DNA of 64,000 nucleotides, from positions 6,528,001 to 6,592,000 of the forward strand of contig CAVUSO010000001.1 of assembly GCA_963744145.1 (NCBI GenBank), given 5' to 3'. Source of the DNA: an uncultured cyanobacterium (GTDB lineage: Bacteria > Cyanobacteriota > Cyanobacteriia > Cyanobacteriales > CAWUOF01). The notes beneath the pieces were generated by a model that saw only the letters and a list, made by a program, of their open reading frames with translations, was not told the origin of the DNA and made no database searches. This document shows positions 9,199-63,345 of this stretch, piece after piece (the first letter of the stretch is position 1; each line of letters starts with the position of its first letter). A program made the translations under genes and the position numbers.

Positions 9199-10071
9199 TT
9201 AATTTTTCTGGTCTTCAATTCGATCTAAAAATTCACTCAAAACTTGTAAAAATCGCTCTGTTTCCTCTAGATGAACCATGTGTGAACTATTTTCAAAAAG
9301 TACCCATTCAGAGCCGCAAATACCTTGGTTAACTATTTCGACACAAGCAGGAGTAACCTCATCGTAGTGACCTGAAATTAGCAGGGTCGGTGTGACAATT
9401 TCTGCGAGACGATTTGACCTATTCCAGTCGATAATTTTGCCCACACCACGAAACACTGTACCAACTTTACTATAAGCTCTAGTTAAGCATTCCGGCCAAG
9501 GATCTAATCGACAAAGAAAGGAATAATTAAATAATTCCATAGCTTGTTTATATTCAGGTGATTCGGTAGTATGATTAGTTTCATGGTGATGGATAATCTG
9601 TTGTATTTCTTTTGGTAAATCATTCATCAACCTATATGCTTCACTGACAAATTGTTGAATATTTGCTGGTGTACTAGCTAAGATGAGACTAACTAACCCA
9701 TTAGCTCGATCAAGAGCGTGTTCGAGTGCTAAACAGCCCCCCCATGATTGTCCAAAAAGATGTATTTGCTCTAAATTTAGGGCTTGACGAATAGTGACAA
9801 GTTCCTCTTTAAATAGATCAATGGAATAAAAATCAGGATCTTGGGGGCGATCGCTATTCCCACAACCTAATTGATCATAAAATATGACAGATCGTCCCGT
9901 TTTGGCGATCGCTGCTAGTGGTTCTAAGTAGTCATGGGGTACTCCTGGACCACCATGAAGACATAGCAGTGGGAATTTGCCCAATTCTTCCGGTTCGGGT
10001 TTAATTTGACGATACCAAACTTGATGACCACGGAATGGGATAAAACCTTCACTAGCAGATGTTTTTGTCAT
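9199..10071 (-). CDS. Proline iminopeptidase-family alpha/beta hydrolase
   Basis: HGGPG, YDQLGCG and GQSWGG motifs. Confidence 0.92.
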   Translation of the reverse strand: MTKTSASEGFIPFRGHQVWYRQIKPEPEELGKFPLLCLHGGPGVPHDYLEPLAAIAKTGRSVIFYDQLGCGNSDRPQDPDFYSIDLFKEELVTIRQALNLEQIHLFGQSWGGCLALEHALDRANGLVSLILASTPANIQQFVSEAYRLMNDLPKEIQQIIHHHETNHTTESPEYKQAMELFNYSFLCRLDPWPECLTRAYSKVGTVFRGVGKIIDWNRSNRLAEIVTPTLLISGHYDEVTPACVEIVNQGICGSEWVLFENSSHMVHLEETERFLQVLSEFLDRIEDQKN

Positions 10072-11219: not shown

Positions 11220-11963
11220 ATGACGATTGCTAAAGAAATAGAATCTTCCCAAAATACCTGCCCAAATGTTATCTTTCCTTCAGGTGATTTATATAGCGAC
11301 GAGCCTCCCTTGGAAAGCGAACTACATCTGCGACAAATAATTCTCCTGTTACAATGCCTAGAATGGTTATGGCAAGACCGAACTGATTTTTATGCCGCAG
11401 GAAACCTGACCATTTACTATAGTCGCTATCAACGCAAAAGCGAGGATAGTCGAGGACCAGATTTTTTTGTAGTATTGGATACGGAACGGAAAATCCGGAA
11501 AAGTTGGGTATTATGGGAAGAAGAGGGCAAATATCCCAACTTCATTGTTGAAATTCTGTCGGAATCAACAGCACAGAAGGACAAGAAAGAAAAGAAAAAA
11601 ATTTATCAAAATGTATTTCGGACACCAGATTATTTTTGGTTTGATCCTTACACCCTAGAATTGGCTGGGTTTCATTTACTGGATAATAAATATCAACCTC
11701 TAGAACCAAATCCAGCCGGACATCTGTGGAGTCAGCAATTAGGTTTATATTTAGGAATTCATCAAAGACAATTAAGATTTTTTACCGACCTGGGGAAATT
11801 AGTCCCGACACCAGCAGAAATTGCCCAACAGGAAGCTCAACGGGCCGAACAGGCAGCTCAACAGGCCGAACAGGCAGCTCAACGGGCCGAACAGGAAACT
11901 CAACGGGCCGATCGTTTAGCGGCTAAACTACGACAATTAAATATCGATCCAGATCAGATTTGA
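11220..11963 (+). CDS. Uma2-family endonuclease, copy 2
   Basis: Near-identical to copy 1; four C-terminal heptad repeats. Confidence 0.9.
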   Translation: MTIAKEIESSQNTCPNVIFPSGDLYSDEPPLESELHLRQIILLLQCLEWLWQDRTDFYAAGNLTIYYSRYQRKSEDSRGPDFFVVLDTERKIRKSWVLWEEEGKYPNFIVEILSESTAQKDKKEKKKIYQNVFRTPDYFWFDPYTLELAGFHLLDNKYQPLEPNPAGHLWSQQLGLYLGIHQRQLRFFTDLGKLVPTPAEIAQQEAQRAEQAAQQAEQAAQRAEQETQRADRLAAKLRQLNIDPDQI

Positions 11964-27749: not shown

Positions 27750-28202
27750 TCATGGAACAGATGGGATCACAAAGTCTGAGAACAACTGAATATCAAAACC
27801 TGTATTTTTTAGAGTATTGACTAACCGTTGATCTTGAGTGAGTAGAGGAGCGTTGTTCTGTTGGGAAAGGGCAACATAGCACGCATCATAGGCAGAAATT
27901 CCATGAGCGATACTAAGGGAAAGTGCTTTCAGCATCAGATCAGCAGTAGGCGTTGTGGTGAAGCGAAGCAACTTTAAATCGGCTAGGTTAGCTTGGGCTT
28001 CTGCACTGTCATACAACCCAGCACGAATATATTTCCAGGCAATGTTTGTACATTTGATGTAAAACAAATCTGGAATGTAAATCCGAGCATCCGGATCATT
28101 CAAATGGGCAAAAAGCTGATCCACTTTTGGAGTCAGTGGCTCGATAATGAATTTCTTAATGCCAACGCTGGCATCGACTATACACTTGAGGGAAGTTGTC
28201 AT
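27750..28202 (-). CDS. VapC/PIN-domain toxin
   Basis: IVDASV, SAYDACYVAL and LLTQD..L motifs. Confidence 0.88.
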   Translation of the reverse strand: MTTSLKCIVDASVGIKKFIIEPLTPKVDQLFAHLNDPDARIYIPDLFYIKCTNIAWKYIRAGLYDSAEAQANLADLKLLRFTTTPTADLMLKALSLSIAHGISAYDACYVALSQQNNAPLLTQDQRLVNTLKNTGFDIQLFSDFVIPSVP

Positions 28203-28567
28203 CGGGCACGATCATCCTGAATCAAGGTAAGGGTATCTGGTAGATGGTGTTGAGCGGGGGAAAAGGTTCGGCGTTGCTCAATCCGTTGAAGAATGTTTGC
28301 CTGCGTAGGTTGGTTTTGCTTTTGCTGTGAACCGTTTGCCGACTGTGTTCTTAAGTCTTGTTGGAAGTCTTCAACGCCATAATGAATGGGGATTTTACGG
28401 CTACCCAAAATGCGCTGAAATTCTAATTGATTCATACCTGCAAACTGGCTGGCTGTGCCCAAGGTAATCTTTTCCTGCTGAAACAGCAGAATGGCAATTT
28501 CTAGCTTGAAATCAGCTTCAGAAATATGTGCCGCTTGCAGAAACTCATCAGAAATAACTAAACTCAT
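28199..28567 (-). CDS. Chimeric UPF0175 / antitoxin-tail protein
   Basis: First ~78 aa near-identical to 44109-44354; unrelated tail ends in ATGA overlap with the PIN gene. Confidence 0.75.
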   Translation of the reverse strand: MSLVISDEFLQAAHISEADFKLEIAILLFQQEKITLGTASQFAGMNQLEFQRILGSRKIPIHYGVEDFQQDLRTQSANGSQQKQNQPTQANILQRIEQRRTFSPAQHHLPDTLTLIQDDRAR

Positions 28568-44108: not shown

Positions 44109-44354
44109 TTATCGCCAGTTGTTTGCCTCGAGTGTTCTTAAGTCTTGTCGGAAGTCTGCAATGCCATAATGAATGGAGATTTTACGACTACTCAAAATGC
44201 GCTGAAATTCTAATTGATTCATACCTGCAAACTGGCTGGCTGTGCCCAAGGTAATTTTTTCCTGCTGAAACAGCAGAATGGCAATTTCTAGCTTGAAATC
44301 GGCTTCAGAAATATGTGCCGCTTGCAGAAACTCATCAGGAATAACTAAACTCAT
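44109..44354 (-). CDS. UPF0175 family protein (putative antitoxin)
   Basis: LEIAI.LFQ..KITLG.AS pattern. Confidence 0.85.
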   Translation of the reverse strand: MSLVIPDEFLQAAHISEADFKLEIAILLFQQEKITLGTASQFAGMNQLEFQRILSSRKISIHYGIADFRQDLRTLEANNWR

Positions 44355-44462: not shown

Positions 44463-45038
44463 TTGGGAGATCGATTGATGATTATTAATCCAAGCTCCAG
44501 CTACGTTTTGCCAGAAGAGTATCTGAAGGCAGAGCAGGACAGCCCAAGTAAGCATGAATACCGCCAGGGACTCATGTATGCAATGGCAGGGGCAAGCAAT
44601 GCTCATGTGCTTATTGCCGTGAATTTAGTTGCCATGTTGAGAAATCATGTGCGTGGCAGCGGTTGTCGAGTTTACACATCCGATACGAAAGTGCGGATTG
44701 AGACCGTTAATACCTATTACTATCCAGATGTAGCCATCAGTTGTGATGAGCGCGATCGAGCCTTCAAGGACTTTTTGCGCTATCCCTGTTTGATTGTGGA
44801 AGTGCTATCCGAGACGACAGAGGCGTTCGATCGGGGTGATAAATTCGAGGATTATCGACATTTAGACTCTCTCCAGGAATATGTGTTAGTCAGCCAAACC
44901 CGCAAGCGCGTGGAGTGTTTTCGGCGAAATGCCCAAGGTCAGTGGGTGCTGTATCCATTCGGTGAGGTTGACGGAATTCATCTGGCGAGTGTAGATTTTC
45001 GGTGCGCGATCGCAGATGTTTATGAAGATGTGGACTGA
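44463..45038 (+). CDS. Uma2-family endonuclease (distinct subfamily)
   Basis: YYPDV, VEVLS.TT..FDRG.KF..Y and SLQEYVLV motifs. Confidence 0.92.
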   Translation: MGDRLMIINPSSSYVLPEEYLKAEQDSPSKHEYRQGLMYAMAGASNAHVLIAVNLVAMLRNHVRGSGCRVYTSDTKVRIETVNTYYYPDVAISCDERDRAFKDFLRYPCLIVEVLSETTEAFDRGDKFEDYRHLDSLQEYVLVSQTRKRVECFRRNAQGQWVLYPFGEVDGIHLASVDFRCAIADVYEDVD

Positions 45039-45068
45039 TCGACTCCAAACCCGCAGGATGAAAATGAT

Positions 45069-45242
45069 TCATTCAGTGATTTTGTCTTCAACGCCCTTAA
45101 GAATCCGGGATAATTGGCTTTTTTCATCTACCGTAATTCGCGAGGGAGAATCGCTAACAATCCGTTCATCGTTGCGGAAGAAATCCTTAATTTCCGGTCT
45201 ATTAGGGCTAATCGGATATTCCCGAATCCCTTTATCGTGCCA
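45069..45242 (-). pseudogene. Decayed copy of the last 58 codons of kaiC
   Basis: 162/174 nt identical to 48537-48710, no indels. Confidence 0.95.
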
Positions 45243-45657
45243 CCAGATCCTCTATTTTTGCAGGCTCCGTAATTTCAACAAGATTAATATTCACAGCACT
45301 TCCGGCTGATAAAATCCCTTGTTCCTGGGCAATGGTCGGTTCAGAATTCAGTTTCAAAATAATTACTCCCATTAGGATCAATATTATTGCTCCTATTTTT
45401 AATGGACTCACCGACTCATTTAGCCAAAAAATTCCTATAACTGTGATTAAGACTGTTCCCATCCCAGACCAAACTGCATAAACGATGCTCACTTCGAGTT
45501 TTTTTAGGCTGAATCCTAAGATAGCAAAAGAGAGACCATAGAAGACAAAAGTTAAAATTGAAGGCAATATTTTAGAAAATCCTTCTGATAACTTCAGACA
45601 ACTCGTGGCGATTATTTCTAGAAAGATTGCCAAGATTACACATATCCAACTGATCAT
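45232..45657 (-). CDS. SMR/DMT small multidrug transporter
   Basis: LAI.LEI..T..LKLSEGF and YAVWSGMG motifs; stop codon lies within the kaiC copy. Confidence 0.9.
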   Translation of the reverse strand: MISWICVILAIFLEIIATSCLKLSEGFSKILPSILTFVFYGLSFAILGFSLKKLEVSIVYAVWSGMGTVLITVIGIFWLNESVSPLKIGAIILILMGVIILKLNSEPTIAQEQGILSAGSAVNINLVEITEPAKIEDLVAR

Positions 45658-45762
45658 GGTTTAAGTTCACTCCTTTTTATTCATCTTTAATTCTAAAAGG
45701 CATTGCCTTAGATGTTTGAAGTATTTTCCTATCTGCGGATCTTTGCTTGTAACGTTTAAGAT

Positions 45763-46545
45763 TTACCAGAGGGAACCAGCCGATACAGTTAGATCCTGCA
45801 TCGTAATACCCAAGGCTTCATCACGACACAAGAAAACAGCCAAATGGCCAATCTCTTTAGGTTGTATGATTCGCTTTTGCGGATTGATCTGTTTTAGTTC
45901 CGACATATATTGGGCTAAGTCTTTGCCTTGAGTTTCGGCAATTTCCCTCATCCAGTTTTTGCCTAAGTCAGTTTCTACCCAGCCGGGACTAATAGTATTG
46001 CAGGTGACATGATGAGGCGCACCTTCCAAAGCTACACATCGGGTTAGCCCCAATACTGCTGATTTAGAAGCACAGTAAGCGGCATTGGTTGGAGAACCTA
46101 CCGAAACAGCGGTAGAGCCAATATTGATAATACGCCCCCAGTTGCGATCGATCATTCCTGGTAAACAAAGCTTTATGGCGCGATAGACCCCATTGAGGTT
46201 AACATCAATGACTTGATGCCATATTTCATCAGAATGACTACACATTGACTGCTCCGCACCGATGCCGGCAGAATTGGCTAGGATGTCTACTTGGCCGAAA
46301 ACTTTGGTCACAGTATTGTAAAAAGCTTGCACCGAGTCAGTTGATGTGACATCAAGATTCATTGCCAGCGCCCTGACTCCATGTGCCTCAATTTCGTCTT
46401 TACATGGACTTGTTTCCGCAGTACGGGAACCGATCGCTACATCAGCTCCAGCTTCAGCAAAAGCGAGAGCTATCGCTCTGCCTATCCCAGAAGCTCCGCC
46501 CGTTACCATCGCCACACGACCTGATAAAAATCTCTCCCTACCCAT
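45763..46545 (-). CDS. Short-chain dehydrogenase/reductase
   Basis: TGGASGIG, YCASK and PGWVET motifs. Confidence 0.95.
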   Translation of the reverse strand: MGRERFLSGRVAMVTGGASGIGRAIALAFAEAGADVAIGSRTAETSPCKDEIEAHGVRALAMNLDVTSTDSVQAFYNTVTKVFGQVDILANSAGIGAEQSMCSHSDEIWHQVIDVNLNGVYRAIKLCLPGMIDRNWGRIINIGSTAVSVGSPTNAAYCASKSAVLGLTRCVALEGAPHHVTCNTISPGWVETDLGKNWMREIAETQGKDLAQYMSELKQINPQKRIIQPKEIGHLAVFLCRDEALGITMQDLTVSAGSLW

Positions 46546-46547
46546 AG

Positions 46548-47327
46548 TTATAAGGATTTCAAAATAGTGCTTACTACAATACTCATCCGCTTCTCTTCAG
46601 CGATTACTCCATGAGCAAGAGGCTTAATTTTAGCAAGCGCATCAACATTTTTGAAATGTGTCTGAAACTGAAAGCCTGTATAGACAAGAATTTCTCCAAT
46701 GTCAAGCGTTATCATTTGAGGTTTAGTAGCGCCTTCCGGCTGGATCATTAAATTTGATGTCGGTCCAATAATGCTTTGAATAAAGCTCTTATCCCGGTGC
46801 ATCTCTAGAATCACTTTTTCCCGATAATATGTAGGTTTTATTTGGAGAACACAGGAAAGAGCTGAATTGGGTTCTAAGTAACTTTTCAGCTTTTCCAGCA
46901 GGGGAGAATTTATGTAGCGGTTAACGAACTGTGCAATATCATATCCTTGGTTATGGGGCAATTTTTCAACTTCTGGGATGCTGTCTGAGTTCACATTATT
47001 CTCAGGTACAAAAAACGTATTTCTGTCACCTGAATATAAGTTTTTAGAATTGTAGTATTCAAGGGGAAACTTTTTAGCCTCATAGATATCGTCATATACT
47101 TCTGGCGGCCAGTAACCGGCCCGATATCCGGAGTTCCGAAAAACATAATCACCAGACTTAAATAAGTCTCTCTCTTGATCTGGTCTTTCAAAAAATTTTC
47201 GCATTGCCTCACGAAAGAAGACAATATTTTGATGCAATATCTCTAAATCATTTGGATTTACGACGGTTTTCAAGTAATCTTGTTTTAAGATTATATAGCT
47301 TTGCTCGCTAAACTGTTGAAACTTCAT
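46548..47327 (-). CDS. Putative 2OG-Fe(II) dioxygenase (IPNS-like)
   Basis: HxD (HRD)...H (LAHGV)...RxS (RMS). Confidence 0.65.
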   Translation of the reverse strand: MKFQQFSEQSYIILKQDYLKTVVNPNDLEILHQNIVFFREAMRKFFERPDQERDLFKSGDYVFRNSGYRAGYWPPEVYDDIYEAKKFPLEYYNSKNLYSGDRNTFFVPENNVNSDSIPEVEKLPHNQGYDIAQFVNRYINSPLLEKLKSYLEPNSALSCVLQIKPTYYREKVILEMHRDKSFIQSIIGPTSNLMIQPEGATKPQMITLDIGEILVYTGFQFQTHFKNVDALAKIKPLAHGVIAEEKRMSIVVSTILKSL

Positions 47328-47429
47328 GCTAATTCTCTCCTGATCGGCTAGGTAGTGTTTTTAAGGGAAAAGCCAGAGCTTGGCAGCCAATAATCTCGAT
47401 TCTGGGATTTGAGTTCCCTCTCTCTTTAG

Positions 47430-48186
47430 TTAGCTTTTTGGTATATTGGCTCCCTTTGTACCGATGATAGCGATATAGTATAGGGGGCGTCCGTCCATGT
47501 GAAATCGATGCTGATAGATATGTTGATCAGCAATCTCAAAAATGTCAGTTTCGGCTACCCAAGGGTGCGATGCCACAAAGGAAGTCTCGCTTTTGTCCTC
47601 CCAGCGTTCTTTCTGCACATTGAATGCAATCCAGCCATTGGGTGCGATCAGGTTAAATGCGTTAGCTAAACCTAAAGCAGGAATGTGATTAAACGCGAGT
47701 GCAGAAGTGCAAACCAGACAATTAAACCCTCGTTTGCTTAGGGTGTTCTGTGTTTTTTCGCTTAAATTGGTTAAGATCTTCAAGGTAGTAATTCTCATAA
47801 ACTCCGGAACATTGCCGTTTGGCAGCTTCAACTGCTTCTGGAAGAATGTCAATTCCAGTGATCGATTTGACTCCTAGATCCGCTAGAGCTTTGCCTACCA
47901 TTCCACTTCCTGCCCCAACTTCTAGCACTACTAGAGCTTTAACGTCGCCACCAGCTTGGGTGACTCGATCTATAAGTAAAGAAGACAATACGATATGGGA
48001 TTTAGCCTGCAACTTTTGCATTAAATATTCGTATAGATGTGGAATCCGATAAATTTGAGCATAGTCGTGTAATTTGAGTTTTTGTTTCTTTTGATTTTGA
48101 CTTAACCAAAAGAATTCTTCCTGGATAGGTAAGTTGCGAACCATTTCCATTTCTGGCAGTTGAACCTCAAAATCCGCTTTCTGCAT
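47430..48186 (-). pseudogene. Class I SAM methyltransferase, split by +1 frameshift
   Basis: VLEVGAGSG motif; two overlapping ORFs join as YYLEDL/TNLSEK near 47772. Confidence 0.8.
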
Positions 48187-48505
48187 ATCTGTTTCAAGTG
48201 TCTGTAATTGGTGAGAATGGAATTATAGCATTTTCAGCTAAGGAGCTTGATCAATATTCTAGTACCGAGACATTTGATTCTTGGCCAGAAAAGCTATTAG
48301 CTTGCTGATTTTAATAAGCCGTATTGATCACCATGGGTACAGAAGATCCATATCTAGATGCAAGTCCATTTTTTACCACCTGGTAAAATGTATTAGCAGT
48401 TATATTTTACTACTTGTTAGCCAAACTGAACCCTACATTGAGCAATATCATCAACTTGATAGCAATGGCATTGATGCTAATTTTGAAAAAAGTGGTTAGT
48501 AATAT

Positions 48506-48530
48506 TGCAGGAGTCAAACAGACTCCTGCA
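48506..48530 (-). terminator. Hairpin immediately after kaiC
   Basis: TGCAGGAGTC-AAACA-GACTCCTGCA, perfect 10-bp stem. Confidence 0.7.
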
Positions 48531-48536
48531 TCTAAT

Positions 48537-50117
48537 TCATTCACTGATTTTGTCTTCAACGCCCTTAAGAATCCGGGATAATTGGCTTTTTTCATCTACC
48601 GTAATCCGCGAGGGAGAACCGCTAATAATCCGTTCATAGTTGCGGAAGGAATCTTTAATTTCCGGTCCATTAGCGCTGATCGTATATTCCCGAATACCTT
48701 TATCGTGCCATGAACCCCGCATTTTGAAAACGTTAATAGCACGAGACATTTCACCTCGGATTTCCACATATTGCAACATTAAGATTGTGTCGGTAATAGT
48801 GGAAATATGGGAATCAGTAATAGAATGCGATCCCATAAATTGATCAGTCGTGTTAGTAAAAAATCCGGTAATTTCTTCTTGTTTAGCGTATCCAGTTACC
48901 CCAATCACAAATTGTCGGAAAGCATTATTACTGACTCCTCTGGCTAAAGCAGAAAGAGAATCGATCGCAATCCGAGAGGGTTTAAATTCGGCGATTTCCG
49001 TTTTAATAATTTGTAAATGGTCTTCTAGTCCCGCTGATTCCGGATAAGCACAGAGGATTCTTAATAAACCCTTTTGCTCCATTTCTTCAAAGTCAATTCC
49101 CCAAGAATAAGCATTACGGAGCAATTGGGCTCGAGATTCTTCATAAGCAAACATCATCGCCCGATCGCCCTTAGTACAAGCATTTTCTAAAAATTTGCTG
49201 ACTAATAAAGTCTTGCCACTCCCGGTTGCCCCAGTTGCTAGAATAATGGAATCTTTGAAAAAACCACCACCACACATATCATCGAGCGTTTTCACTCCTG
49301 AGGATACTCGCGCATTGGAAGAACGTTGAGTCAATCGCATGGCTCCCAAAGGAAAAATATTGATACCTTGACTGGTCATTGTGAAAGGATATTCTCCTTT
49401 CATGTGGGTTGTACCGCGTAGCTTTAAAATTTCGATCGTCCGACGACGACGCTCCCCTTCTAAAACATTACGAACTATTACCACATTATCGGAAACAAAC
49501 TCTTCTACGCCAAAACGAGCAACTTGACCATATTCTTCCACTCGCTCTGTGGTCATAATGGTCGTAGCCCCAACTTGTTTTAAGCGTGCCACTAAACGAA
49601 AGATTTCCCGTCTGACGACAGAAGCTGCATCATACTGTTGAAATACAGCTGTCACTGAGTCAATCGAAACTCGTTTTGCTTTATACTTGCGGATAGCATA
49701 CTGAATACGTTCAATTAAAGCAGACAGATCAAAATTGCCGATCACTTCTTGTCCATCCGGATCAGGGGAAGCATCTAAAATAAATAGTTTTCCTTGTTCA
49801 ATTAAAGATTGTAAATTCCAGCCAAAACTATAAGCATTCTTAATAATATCCGCTGGTGCTTCTTCAAAGGTAACGAATACTCCTGGTTCATCAAAATGGG
49901 TAATTCCCAGATACAGAAATTGAATGGCAAATAAGGTTTTCCCAGTTCCTGATGTCCCACTAACTAAAGTCGTTCGACCGATTGGTAGACCACCATGACT
50001 AATATCATCGAAGCCCTCAATCATGGTCAGAATTTTCTGGACTCCCAAAGATTTTGTTTTTAATTCTTGCTCAGGTTGATTAATTTCATTCATAGCTTTG
50101 TTTGTAAAGTTTTTCAC
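48537..50117 (-). CDS. kaiC: Circadian clock protein KaiC
   Basis: Two Walker A motifs (GTSGTGKT, GATGSGKT); ISTITD phosphosites. Confidence 0.99.
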   Translation of the reverse strand: MKNFTNKAMNEINQPEQELKTKSLGVQKILTMIEGFDDISHGGLPIGRTTLVSGTSGTGKTLFAIQFLYLGITHFDEPGVFVTFEEAPADIIKNAYSFGWNLQSLIEQGKLFILDASPDPDGQEVIGNFDLSALIERIQYAIRKYKAKRVSIDSVTAVFQQYDAASVVRREIFRLVARLKQVGATTIMTTERVEEYGQVARFGVEEFVSDNVVIVRNVLEGERRRRTIEILKLRGTTHMKGEYPFTMTSQGINIFPLGAMRLTQRSSNARVSSGVKTLDDMCGGGFFKDSIILATGATGSGKTLLVSKFLENACTKGDRAMMFAYEESRAQLLRNAYSWGIDFEEMEQKGLLRILCAYPESAGLEDHLQIIKTEIAEFKPSRIAIDSLSALARGVSNNAFRQFVIGVTGYAKQEEITGFFTNTTDQFMGSHSITDSHISTITDTILMLQYVEIRGEMSRAINVFKMRGSWHDKGIREYTISANGPEIKDSFRNYERIISGSPSRITVDEKSQLSRILKGVEDKISE

Positions 50118-50190: not shown

Positions 50191-50523
50191 TTATTTTTCG
50201 GTTTCTTGTTCTGATAGCTCTTCATAAAGCAAGTCTAATCCAATTAATACCCGTTCCCGATCGGAAAGATCGCCGATAATCTTTCTGACTGGGGGTGGCA
50301 GGATTTTCGCTAAAGTAGGTGTAGCCAATATTTTATCTTCTTCTGCTAACTGCGGGTTTTTAAGTACATCGATCACTTTGAGCGCATAAACACCCTGAAA
50401 TTCATTTTCGAGAATATTTTTGAGGGTTTTCAACGCTTTGACCGAATTGGGAGTATTCCCAGCTACGTAGAGTTTGAGAACATAGGTTTTTTTTAAAGGA
50501 GTCATAGTTTTTTGATTATTCAT
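50191..50523 (-). CDS. kaiB: Circadian clock protein KaiB
   Basis: [21 protein letters not shown]. Confidence 0.99.
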
Positions 50524-50648: not shown

Positions 50649-51560
50649 TTAAGAATCTCTAGGGATAGAACGACGGTACATTTCGCATAAATGAGCCAGA
50701 GTATCAATTAAGGTGAGACGGTAATCTAGCAATACTTCCTCACTCCGTCCTTCTAATTGGAGATGTTTAGCAAATTCATCCATTAATTCCATGTGAATTT
50801 CTACGATTTGGGTAACGGCAACATCAGCAAAAAAAACCATGTTTACAAATTCATCAATTTGTTGATTCAGTGGTGTTTTTGGAGAAAAATAATTTAAAAC
50901 TATTTTTCGATATTCTGATTTGAGCGTTTCTAGAAATTCTTGACGCTCCCCTGACGGTAAATTCCGCAAAAACTGTTGGGGATTCCTTTTGTAATACACA
51001 CCTAAGTATCCTAAACGCTCCCTCAATTTTTCAGCTAAACGTCGCTGCTGCCACATTAGTGAGTTTTGGTCATTAGTGCCAGCTACTACAGTTGAAGTCT
51101 GAGCTGTTAACTGAGGGGTGGGAGACATAGTTAGAAATTTGGCGATCGCTTGGTCTATGATTATGGGAATTTGACTAAGTTGATCAATCGACACCCGGAC
51201 TTCAGCGGGGTGGTAAATGCAGTTTAAATTCCCCCCATCTAAGAAATCTAATTTATTGGTAATAGTTTGGTTTTTCTGGGTCGGTTCAATTTTACTTATA
51301 CCTTCTAGCGCTACTTTAACAATAACAGAGGGTAATAAGGTGGCTTGTTCCCGTAGTTTTTTTACTACTGGCCAGAATTGGGGGTCATCTTGGACGATCA
51401 GACAATCAAGCTGCTCTTTGCGGTTTTCGACAAAATTGCTAAACTCCCTGGCTGAGGTAAGATGGGTCACAACATAGCGATCGCTAATTAAAAATGCCAT
51501 CAGCGACTGAGCTAACACAGCAGAATCAAAAAACGTAGCGATCGATAGTTGGGGACGCAA
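50649..51560 (-). CDS. kaiA: Circadian clock protein KaiA
   Basis: LGYLGVYYKR and LDYRLTLID.LAHLCEMYRRS motifs. Confidence 0.98.
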   Translation of the reverse strand: MRPQLSIATFFDSAVLAQSLMAFLISDRYVVTHLTSAREFSNFVENRKEQLDCLIVQDDPQFWPVVKKLREQATLLPSVIVKVALEGISKIEPTQKNQTITNKLDFLDGGNLNCIYHPAEVRVSIDQLSQIPIIIDQAIAKFLTMSPTPQLTAQTSTVVAGTNDQNSLMWQQRRLAEKLRERLGYLGVYYKRNPQQFLRNLPSGERQEFLETLKSEYRKIVLNYFSPKTPLNQQIDEFVNMVFFADVAVTQIVEIHMELMDEFAKHLQLEGRSEEVLLDYRLTLIDTLAHLCEMYRRSIPRDS

Positions 51561-62805: not shown

Positions 62806-63345
62806 ATGTCCGACCCAAACAGCCAAAATACTAATGGTCAAAATGCGCGGGAGCTAAACTATGTTACAGCTAATCGCTTTTATGTAGAAATAGAAAGTAC
62901 AATTACTGCTTGTTTTACCGAATGTAATGGTTTGGGAGTCACAATTAAAGCTGAAAAATATTCTGAAGGTGGAGTAAACGATCAACAGAGACTGCTCTTA
63001 GGTCAAGCAGAATTTGCTGATGTCACTCTCAAACGGGGAATAACCAATGATTTGGTTTTTTGGACTTGGATTAGTGCTATCTTAAGTGATAGTAGCAAAA
63101 AAGAGCGTCGTAACGTTAATATTTTGTTATTTAATCAAGCTGGAGAAACCATGCAATGTTGGACTTTAATTGGTGCAGTTCCTGTTGCTTGGAAAACACC
63201 ACCATTAAAAGCAGATGCTAATACCGTCGCAATTGAAGAATTAACCTTAGCTTATGAAGGTTTAAAAGTAAATAATAAAGGTGGTAGTAGTGGTGCTTCG
63301 ACTTTAGCAGGACGTGATAAATTAGGCTATTTTTCTAGTAATTAA
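62806..63345 (+). CDS. Phage tail tube (gp19-like) protein of a contractile injection system
   Basis: RFYVEI..F.EC.GL, EGGVN, VTLKRG and A.EELTLAYEG motifs. Confidence 0.93.
   Translation: MSDPNSQNTNGQNARELNYVTANRFYVEIESTITACFTECNGLGVTIKAEKYSEGGVNDQQRLLLGQAEFADVTLKRGITNDLVFWTWISAILSDSSKKERRNVNILLFNQAGETMQCWTLIGAVPVAWKTPPLKADANTVAIEELTLAYEGLKVNNKGGSSGASTLAGRDKLGYFSSN

Follow-up and report, generated by a model that had tools for sequence, protein, structure and literature searches.

How did a cassette of foreign genes come to lie between two copies of the 3' end of the clock gene kaiC? In the 64,000 nucleotides that we analysed (the window), a repeat search identifies positions 45067-45242 and 48535-48710 as a direct repeat of 176 nt, a single two-copy family with 93% identity, a spacing of 3468 and a gap of 3,292 bp between the copies. 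A BLAST search finds these two copies and no others in the whole genome of ~7.7 Mb (a 7.63-Mb chromosome and three small contigs). Read in coding orientation, the repeat runs from a Trp codon to the kaiC stop and extends 2 nt beyond the TGA. The duplication claimed in the original prediction is real, with 176 nt instead of 174 nt, and our counts of 12 substitutions (eight nonsynonymous, four synonymous) and no indels agree with it. These differences are unevenly spread: 11 of the 12 fall in the first 105 nt of the repeat and the next 61 nt are identical (binomial P = 0.0185 for the clustering), the perfect shared run occupying 48545-48605 and 45077-45137.

An assembly error is hardly credible. 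The chromosome was assembled as one 7.63-Mb contig, and the copies differ at 12 positions. Short-read contigs from run X1 carry relic-specific letters and support both cassette joins with no differences: they link the distal copy to the exporter and dehydrogenase genes described below (45077-46582), and the methyltransferase to the kaiC stop (47919-48574). Run X1 is probably the source sample and hence not independent, and what speaks for an artefact is that no single independent read or contig crosses a whole repeat copy.

The kaiC gene itself is intact, a 526-aa open reading frame from the first GTG (48537..50117, minus strand; Pfam PF06745, E 7.7e-122), with kaiB (50191-50523) and kaiA (50649-51560) upstream on the same strand, both recognised by Pfam. 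The nearest relative, G001, belongs to the same family, and its KaiC shares 92% of amino acids with the protein encoded here. The proximal repeat copy (48535..48710, minus strand) forms the end of this gene, and the protein tail that it encodes agrees with 11 relatives at conserved positions. The distal copy (45067..45242, minus strand) carries the changes T10P, A13P, G15R, S21F, Y25D, I29V, G31D and S56T. Almost all of the 26 relatives compared side with the proximal copy at the differing codons 15, 21, 25, 29 and 31, and the distal Pro at codon 10 occurs in none of the 26. At least six of the eight amino acid changes are derived and affect conserved KaiC positions, while the four synonymous differences lie at sites saturated among these relatives and are uninformative on polarity. 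The proximal copy is the working end and the distal copy a non-functional relic. Expression of the relic as a KaiA-binding peptide was considered and ruled out, because its reading frame contains no ATG, GTG or TTG and is preceded by an in-frame TAG. Right behind the kaiC stop lies a stable hairpin (48505..48530, minus strand; -18.8 kcal/mol by RNA folding), which is likely the kaiC terminator; a hairpin also follows kaiC at this position in most of the 17 relatives compared, but its sequence is unrelated. The exact hairpin pattern occurs once in the genome, which rules out a REP element.

Multiple kaiC-like genes occur in some relatives (two full-length matches in G012), so the relic could be what is left of a second tandem kaiC paralogue, the rest of which was deleted or overwritten by the cassette. 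We regard this as very improbable: the 93% nucleotide identity of the two copies far exceeds the 65-73% of second kaiC-like matches in relatives, the insert contains no further kaiC-like sequence, and the relic has a sharp left boundary at its joint with the exporter gene. On its other side, the relic faces a converging Uma2-family gene (PD-(D/E)xK nuclease-like; 44463..45038, plus strand; Pfam PF05685, E 1.2e-38), whose stop is 28 nt away. Relatives of this gene with 81-84% nucleotide identity lie in unrelated contexts without kaiC, and a metagenome scan with it returned nine loci, none with an adjoining kaiC. Two relics in the genome abut Uma2 genes, and we therefore considered Uma2 as the insertion agent; the genome holds at least 150 Uma2 matches, however, so that the adjacency is not clearly beyond chance, and we rejected this candidate.

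All insert genes lie on the minus strand, in the orientation of kaiABC. Next to kaiC is a SAM-dependent methyltransferase gene (47430..48186; Pfam methyltransferase domains) with a +1 frameshift, an extra T near 47774, which splits it into overlapping frames at 47722-48186 and 47430-47852. These correspond to residues 1-144 and 138-252 of the 251-aa homologue in genome G032, which is intact, and a DNA alignment shows the single extra nucleotide against both homologues; the listed X1 contigs miss the frameshift site. The following gene (46548..47327) encodes a 259-aa protein outside any Pfam family and, among 401 genomes of the order, turned up in only three. Its AlphaFold2 model, of moderate confidence (mean pLDDT 66, pTM 0.72), predicts a fold like that of 2-oxoglutarate/Fe(II) oxygenases, a superfamily characterised by a double-stranded beta-helix, an HxD...H iron triad and an arginine that binds 2OG. 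Foldseek matched the model to 312 PDB chains at E <= 0.001, the top-listed ones being 2OG-Fe(II)-type oxygenases and the best 3oox_A, a putative 2OG-Fe(II) oxygenase (E 2e-7, TM 0.5-0.57). His-177, Asp-179, His-239 and Arg-247 are invariant across 19 sequences; we take H177-x-D179 and H239 to be the candidate iron triad and R247 the candidate 2OG-binding arginine. The start of an intact short-chain dehydrogenase/reductase (SDR) gene (45763..46545; Pfam adh_short, E 2.7e-56) sits 2 nt past the stop of the 259-aa gene. Last comes a 141-aa SMR-family exporter with a cut C-terminal tail (45232..45657; Pfam PF00893, E 1.3e-26). The predicted spacer of four co-oriented genes without an integrase thus holds for orientation and for the missing integrase, its length being 3,292 bp (3,294 when counted from the stop codon); three of the genes are intact, whereas the methyltransferase is broken. 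A promoter and terminator scan gave counts no higher than in shuffles.

The GC content of the insert (38-47%) is close to that of its flanks (37-43%), and composition thus gives no signal of its origin. Relatives of the cassette do. Two genomes from families other than that of the host, G032 and G225 (Aerosakkonema sp. BLCC-F183), match the cassette genes at 84-90% nucleotide identity, whereas their kaiC and kaiB reach just 77-78%, a disparity that marks the insert as foreign; the rarity of the 259-aa gene in the order agrees with this. By gene, the identities are given as 87-90% for the methyltransferase and the 259-aa gene, 76-84% for the SDR (84% in G032) and 74-79% for SMR. In G032 (locus L015), the cassette relatives lie within an NRPS-like A-MT-T-R cluster; in G225, they are split over two loci (L059 and L018), a degraded copy of the same cluster. 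The G032 cluster also encodes a 1464-aa adenylation-methyltransferase-carrier-reductase and a 435-aa condensation-like protein, both of which the window lacks, and each of the three genomes has its own gene order and orientation. The 3,292-bp insert is thus a fragment of a horizontally acquired NRPS-type secondary-metabolite cluster in a soil cyanobacterium. There is no kaiC fragment beside the cassette relatives in G032 or G225. In G001, kaiABC is followed by another Uma2 gene, in the opposite orientation, with 57.5% amino acid identity and better matches elsewhere, and the downstream region shows no synteny.

The two ends of the insert differ. At the distal end, the exporter gene takes its stop codon TAA (45232-45234) from the relic, as had been predicted, and its last three amino acids (V, A, R) as well. 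Both SMR homologues, of 162 and 161 aa, run ~22 residues longer, with the common end ...PIKSPELENL, so the exporter has lost ~22 C-terminal residues exactly at the relic junction. The DNA likeness of the SMR end to G032 stops at 45244, the nearest SMR homologue being only 74% identical around this joint. At the kaiC side, two short fragments of 61-80 nt (48270..48413) resemble terminal regions of ISL3-family insertion sequences and match C1:4662909-4662972, 4664129-4664189, 6509026-6509089 and 7192036-7192115 at 80-94%; ORFs of a fragmented ISL3 transposase lie at the 4.66-Mb locus. No transposase ORF accompanies the fragments at the kaiC-side junction, and two loose contig ends of run X1 (48350 and 48410) fall within this region. 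These remnants leave room for a transposon-linked step. A transposon or IS cassette as a whole is not what the ends look like: the repeat search returned no inverted repeat pairing the two, there is no transposase, and transposon target duplications are typically short, the 176-nt duplication being far longer.

We searched for a dedicated mobile element at the locus. Neither the insert ORFs nor 32 ORFs of the window between 25.5 and 63.8 kb match an integrase or a resolvase in Pfam, and searches for tRNA genes and Rfam families gave no hit. Genome-wide, there are two Phage_integrase (PF00589) and six Resolvase (PF00239) matches, none of them at the kaiC locus; the closest tyrosine-recombinase match is a fragment ~96 kb away. 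Islands in tRNA genes or gene 3' ends, and cis-mobilisable islands, have short conserved att sites from a tyrosine integrase. Cis-mobilisable islands have no recombination module of their own and are bounded by direct repeats that include a gene 3' end, and so is the kaiC insert, but the kaiC repeat consists of 176 bp of coding sequence, and the genome encodes no cognate integrase. A site-specific island that targeted the kaiC 3' end and brought a replacement end, its integrase since lost or acting in trans, would account for the classic topology of the locus: the direct repeat includes the kaiC 3' end, the gene is restored, the relic is displaced, and homology stops 2 nt after the stop codon. 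The cluster of differences over 105 nt, followed by 61 nt of identity, would be expected if the part upstream of the crossover came with the element and had never been exposed to selection. The phages e14 and 21 behave in this way at icd. For e14, in the account of PMC13626634, the incoming DNA supplies the 3' end, so that icd keeps its function, and the native end is left on the far side as the pseudogene icdC. The same source describes recombination between the ends that can rebuild a chimeric gene, and excision of e14 by site-specific recombination on SOS induction. In contrast to this prophage, the kaiC insert has no recombinase or phage gene, one of its ends truncates SMR, and its relic has radical substitutions. 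Neither the same element with its att segment in other genomes nor a circular form in the contigs was found, a second, relic-like kaiC 3' end appeared in none of the 40 relatives searched, cassette relatives elsewhere lack a kaiC-like att segment, and the six other integrase-free targets described below would each require a specificity of their own. We thus consider a site-specific island unlikely. The original prediction that kaiC served as an integration site stands insofar as foreign DNA lies at its 3' end, with the gene whole and a dead copy displaced; the work of a site-specific integrative element is not supported, given the missing recombinase, the cut SMR end, the relatives without a kaiC piece and the six similar loci. 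Excision or amplification between the copies, also proposed, is physically possible as they share the perfect 61-nt run; joints of an excised circle or an empty site are absent from the X1 contigs, which are blind to rare forms.

The scar looks instead like the product of recombination rather than of a dedicated mobile element: a duplicated homologous segment flanks the insert, and one joint lies in unrelated sequence, within SMR. We judge it somewhat probable that an NRPS-associated tailoring and export fragment was inserted at the kaiC 3' end by general recombination with no dedicated integrase. The incoming DNA would have borne homology to the last 58 codons of kaiC, and recombination within this homology would have connected it with the chromosome. 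Its opposite end, broken within SMR, would already have been attached to the kaiC piece by an illegitimate joint at the Trp codon. This may have occurred by (a) recircularisation of a linear fragment and a single Campbell-type crossover, or by (b) homology-facilitated illegitimate recombination (HFIR), with the illegitimate joint inside the anchor. Either route would leave kaiC complete and, beyond the insert, a displaced piece of its 3' end, which has decayed since. Because neither an empty site nor a donor with kaiC adjoining the cassette was found in relative genomes, metagenome contigs or sequencing runs, we infer the route, and a donor in which the cassette once adjoined a kaiC, from the scar itself: the repeat, the polarity of its decay, the foreign and fragmentary insert and the absence of recombinase genes. 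The clustered differences are unlike those expected from a one-step event with uniform decay and would need later gene conversion or an incoming copy that had already decayed.

Similar scars occur elsewhere in the genome. At least six other genes (a glyoxalase-family gene, PutA, a 1813-aa kinase, ClpB and two unknowns) have the same layout of an intact gene, an insert of ~1.3-12 kb and a relic of the gene's own 3' end, with no recombinase and with repeats that end 1-35 nt past the stop. Pfam finds no recombinase in 71 ORFs from these six and two Uma2-paralogue loci. At four other loci, one of them a Uma2 paralogue pair, homology ends 1-6 nt from the stop. In three of the six, most differences between the copies are synonymous (pN/pS values of 0.10, 0.12 and 0.24), so the incoming DNA brought a 3' end that came from a functional allele of a different lineage; both ClpB copies are equally far from 13 relatives. 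These loci also bear on the view that the cassette already lay behind kaiC and that a tandem duplication from the Trp codon to SMR was followed by deletion of the second cassette copy. The joint between the SMR tail and the Trp codon would then be the duplication junction, and four synonymous and eight nonsynonymous differences are compatible with neutral decay of one of two initially identical copies. This in-situ rearrangement requires three events, however, with a deletion ending 2 nt past the relic stop, and random deletions do not predict four other loci ending 1-6 nt from a stop. The ClpB, PutA and glyoxalase copies, moreover, diverged under purifying selection, which is impossible by in-situ duplication, and we regard such an origin at kaiC as decidedly unlikely, more so than the island. 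Among 126 two-copy local direct repeats, a genome-wide scan with crudely called ORFs and one locus counted on both strands gave 22 cases of gene, insert and 3' relic and seven in mirror order; the 5'-end control classes gave 15 and 12, and the genome-wide excess is thus modest. With an accessory block and a relic of the gene's own 3' end at kaiC, clpB, putA and no fewer than four further genes, one can propose, only tentatively, that this cyanobacterial lineage repeatedly gains genes by insertion at gene 3' ends without an integrase; we lean against it.

We compared insertion by general recombination with a known system. In E. coli conjugation, recircularised and partly degraded molecules enter by single crossovers and leave the inserted DNA flanked by duplications of 109-950 bp of the homologous locus, detected by PCR in 56 of 60 clones, of which 14 were sequenced, as reported in PMC3240628. 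The 176 bp found here fall within that range, and the combination of a homologous end and an illegitimate joint is shared (PMC3240628). The E. coli events were laboratory plasmid events, whereas the kaiC event is natural, old and cyanobacterial, and its route is deduced. A literature search gave no report of kaiC as an insertion site among the 10 papers listed of 893 matches. To our knowledge, natural footprints of single crossovers or HFIR have rarely been documented.

The effect on the clock is probably small, with kaiC intact and its hairpin terminator kept. As the cassette is co-oriented with kaiABC, read-through could subject its expression to the clock. If the two copies recombined upstream of the 61-nt run, Y25D, G31D and other radical changes would enter the C-terminal region of KaiC, which we take to be the region that binds KaiA. 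Clean scars of this kind occur at several loci of the genome, kaiC among them, and illustrate how foreign blocks can enter at gene ends without a dedicated recombinase; such scars could be counted systematically by a simple repeat scan. If recurrent, they would represent a natural footprint of one-sided homologous recombination, whether by HFIR or by a single crossover, and make this process a main force behind the gain of islands.

The duplication of the kaiC 3' end described in the original prediction was borne out. Two copies of a 176-nt direct repeat (2 nt longer than first noted), located at 45067-45242 and 48535-48710, share 93% identity at a start-to-start spacing of 3468 nt; they enclose a gap of 3,292 bp and differ by 12 substitutions, 8 of them nonsynonymous, with no indels. 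A BLAST search of the whole genome (7.63-Mb chromosome and three small contigs) returned no third copy. In minus-strand reading, its start coincides exactly with a kaiC Trp codon and its end lies 2 nt past the TGA stop, and the flanks beyond these limits show no relatedness between the two copies. We consider it rather improbable that an in situ tandem duplication followed by a deletion produced this layout. In the short-read run X1, assembled contigs link relic-specific letters to the SMR and SDR genes of the insert (45077-46582) and the insert to the kaiC stop (47919-48574), with 0 differences in either; X1 probably represents the genome's own source sample, so that the agreement speaks for consistency but does not amount to independent proof, and none of its contigs covers either repeat copy in full. 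An assembly artefact appears extremely improbable.

The copy at 48535-48710 runs into an intact 526-amino acid KaiC ORF (Pfam KaiC, E 7.7e-122) that follows kaiA and kaiB, and its KaiC tail matches 11 relatives at conserved positions. The copy at 45067-45242 is a dead relic. Its frame contains a TAG four codons 5' of the Trp and lacks ATG, GTG, and TTG altogether. Counted from the Trp, the relic carries the changes T10P, A13P, G15R, S21F, Y25D, I29V, G31D, and S56T. Nearly all of 26 relatives side with the kaiC copy at codons 15, 21, 25, 29, and 31; the Pro of the relic at codon 10 is found in none of the 26, and codon 13 is variable among relatives but never Pro. It is very unlikely that the relic is what remains of a tandem kaiC paralogue.

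Going downstream from kaiC, the insert encodes a SAM methyltransferase, a 259-amino acid protein, an SDR, and an SMR exporter. The predicted four genes are present, but the methyltransferase is disrupted by one extra T near 47774 when compared with both intact homologues; this site lies outside the listed X1 contigs, and a sequencing error is possible there. The 259-amino acid protein belongs to no Pfam family. Its predicted structure, which is of moderate confidence (pLDDT 66, pTM 0.72), has 3oox_A as the best Foldseek match (E 2e-7) and suggests, again with moderate confidence, a fold like that of 2-oxoglutarate/Fe(II) oxygenases. Residues His-177, Asp-179, His-239, and Arg-247 are unchanged across 19 sequences. 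A strong hairpin (48505-48530, -18.8 kcal/mol), found once in the genome, is located directly behind the kaiC stop, and two short fragments at 48270-48413 resemble the terminal regions of ISL3-family insertion sequences. A degenerate ISL3-family element with its transposase in three ORF fragments resides at G000:C1:4662500-4664700 (locus L068 on the chromosome of this genome), and short stretches from its terminal regions turn up at scattered places in the genome, also behind kaiC. At the other end, the SMR gene indeed takes its stop from the kaiC copy, ending three codons inside the relic. Two SMR homologues of 161-162 amino acids have ~22 more residues in common, ending in PIKSPELENL, and DNA likeness to the cyanobacterium G032 stops at 45244, two bases short of the repeat. 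Because the homologues run on and the DNA likeness ends at the junction, we conclude that this end of the insert is a break within the gene.

Close relatives of all four genes are found in G032 and Aerosakkonema sp. BLCC-F183 (G225), cyanobacteria that belong to other families within the same order. G032 holds the four in one cluster, where SMR and SDR share a strand with genes for a 435-amino acid condensation-like protein and a 1464-amino acid adenylation-methyltransferase-carrier-reductase protein, with the methyltransferase and 259-amino acid genes in divergent orientation. In G225, gyrA and a chloride-channel gene flank the methyltransferase pair, and SMR and SDR adjoin a degraded version of the large gene at a separate locus. 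The methyltransferase pair shares 87-90% nucleotide identity with these genomes, SDR 76-84%, and SMR 74-79%, against only 77-78% for the highly conserved kaiC and kaiB. Of 401 genomes in the order, 3 were found to carry the 259-amino acid gene, and a 5.8-billion-sequence collection yielded 21 protein clusters for it. The insert is a horizontally transferred piece of a secondary-metabolite cluster. All the genes of it that the window holds serve tailoring or export, and one is broken. Related NRPS-like clusters come in three arrangements in three genomes. In G032, a stray 5' SDR fragment lies upstream of the large gene (L015, G032:C1:22000-40000, at 11594-11780); in G225, SMR and SDR stand in swapped order, and beside them are a large gene that is truncated and 80 nt of the 259-amino acid gene (L059, G225:C64:14000-33999, at 9980-10059).

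A genome scan for two-copy local direct repeats, made with crude ORF calls, yielded 126 cases. In 22 of these, a long ORF terminates within one copy, and the other copy is left as a relic past an insert; the mirror order accounts for 7 cases and the 5'-end control classes for 15 and 12, indicating a modest genome-wide excess of the order gene, insert, 3' relic. Six loci besides kaiC are strikingly alike, with an intact 3' end, an insert, and a relic of that 3' end (L060, L062, L064, L065, L066, and L067, at C1:210479-216439, 1956253-1968474, 2989712-2997581, 3661395-3666594, 4896099-4908171, and 5622690-5624198). The targets are a glyoxalase-family gene, putA (followed by a 12-kb block of decarboxylase, oxygenase, and dehydrogenase genes), a 1813-amino acid Ser/Thr-kinase/His-kinase (a 7.3-kb type III PKS block), clpB (an insert with an eCIS-core-domain protein), and two genes of unknown function. 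Their inserts consist of ~1.3-12 kb of accessory genes, and their repeats of 84-301 nt end 1-35 nt past the stop. Pfam detected no recombinase in 71 ORFs from these six and two Uma2-paralogue loci. Synonymous versus nonsynonymous differences number 12 and 5 in the clpB pair (pN/pS 0.10), 3 and 1 in putA (0.12), and 4 and 3 in glyoxalase (0.24). Differences being mostly synonymous, these copies must have diverged while both were in working genes; the incoming DNA carried a 3' end from the allele of another lineage.

The textbook case of a gene, an insert, and a displaced 3' end is the e14 prophage in Escherichia coli icd, where icdC is the pseudogene (PMC13626634). The kaiC locus has the same order, and its topology is the one that the original prediction ascribed to integrative elements; the interpretation given there is supported in part. 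Yet every testable feature of site-specific integration failed: no tRNA, Rfam family, terminal inverted repeat, integrase, resolvase, or transposase ORF was found in or around the insert, the whole genome has only two tyrosine-recombinase matches, there are no element ends, one junction cuts the SMR gene, and the cassette relatives in G032 and G225 carry no att-like kaiC segment. A decayed or trans-mobilized integrative element is therefore unlikely. Seven different targets without a recombinase instead indicate general, homology-dependent recombination. In a laboratory study in E. coli, partly degraded, recircularized molecules integrated through a single crossover, which left 109-950 bp of the homologous locus duplicated (PMC3240628). 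A single crossover of recircularized DNA would duplicate the homologous segment around the insert, and homology-facilitated illegitimate recombination (HFIR) would have an identical outcome, provided that its illegitimate joint fell within the anchor. The kaiC locus is probably, if far from certainly, the scar of an insertion by one of these two routes. Both would require a molecule with kaiC sequence already joined to the cassette. No such donor was found: neither G032 nor G225 has kaiC sequence beside the cassette relatives, the nearest relative lacks synteny downstream of kaiC, metagenome relatives of the neighboring Uma2 gene lie in other contexts, and among sequencing runs the sequence occurs in one only, probably the source sample. 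Eleven of the 12 differences fall within the first 105 nt of the relic, followed by a perfect 61-nt run (48545-48605/45077-45137; binomial P = 0.0185 for no more than one difference within the final 71 nt), a clustering not predicted by uniform decay. Later gene conversion may have acted on the 3' part of the relic, or the incoming kaiC piece may have been decayed upstream beforehand, with the crossover then falling within the identical run. At the relic divergence of 6.8%, neutrality would predict ~6 stops across the three cassette genes that are intact, which total 1,980 coding nt (P = 0.002 for none); either selection kept these genes, or the insertion took place more recently than the divergence suggests.

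Uma2 genes (PF05685, nuclease-like) are extremely numerous, with at least 150 matches in the genome from 250 candidates; two 3'-end relics, those of kaiC (Uma2 gene at 44463-45038) and glyoxalase, directly adjoin one, and close Uma2 relatives (81-84% nucleotide identity) occur in unrelated metagenome contexts. The UPF0175 antitoxin-like gene at 44109-44354, which adjoins cysW without a toxin partner, is a 94% identical 259-nt copy (44109-44379/28199-28592) of the antitoxin from the PIN/UPF0175 pair at 27750-28567. At the right end of the window, an ORF (62806-63345) encodes a T4 gp19-like tail-tube domain (PF06841, E 1.5e-40) and could belong to a contractile injection system or a prophage remnant.

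If homologous recombination took place within the 61-nt identical run, the cassette could be lost and a normal kaiC left with at most S56T, whereas crossovers upstream of it would put radical changes into the KaiC C-terminal region; no excision product was seen among assembled X1 contigs. The cassette is co-oriented with kaiABC behind the hairpin, an arrangement in which read-through into the cassette would be possible. None of the 10 papers listed, out of 893 that matched a literature search, describes insertion at kaiC. The locus shows acquired DNA enclosed by a duplicated gene 3' end, without an integrase. The main point of interest is that the same scar recurs across this genome.
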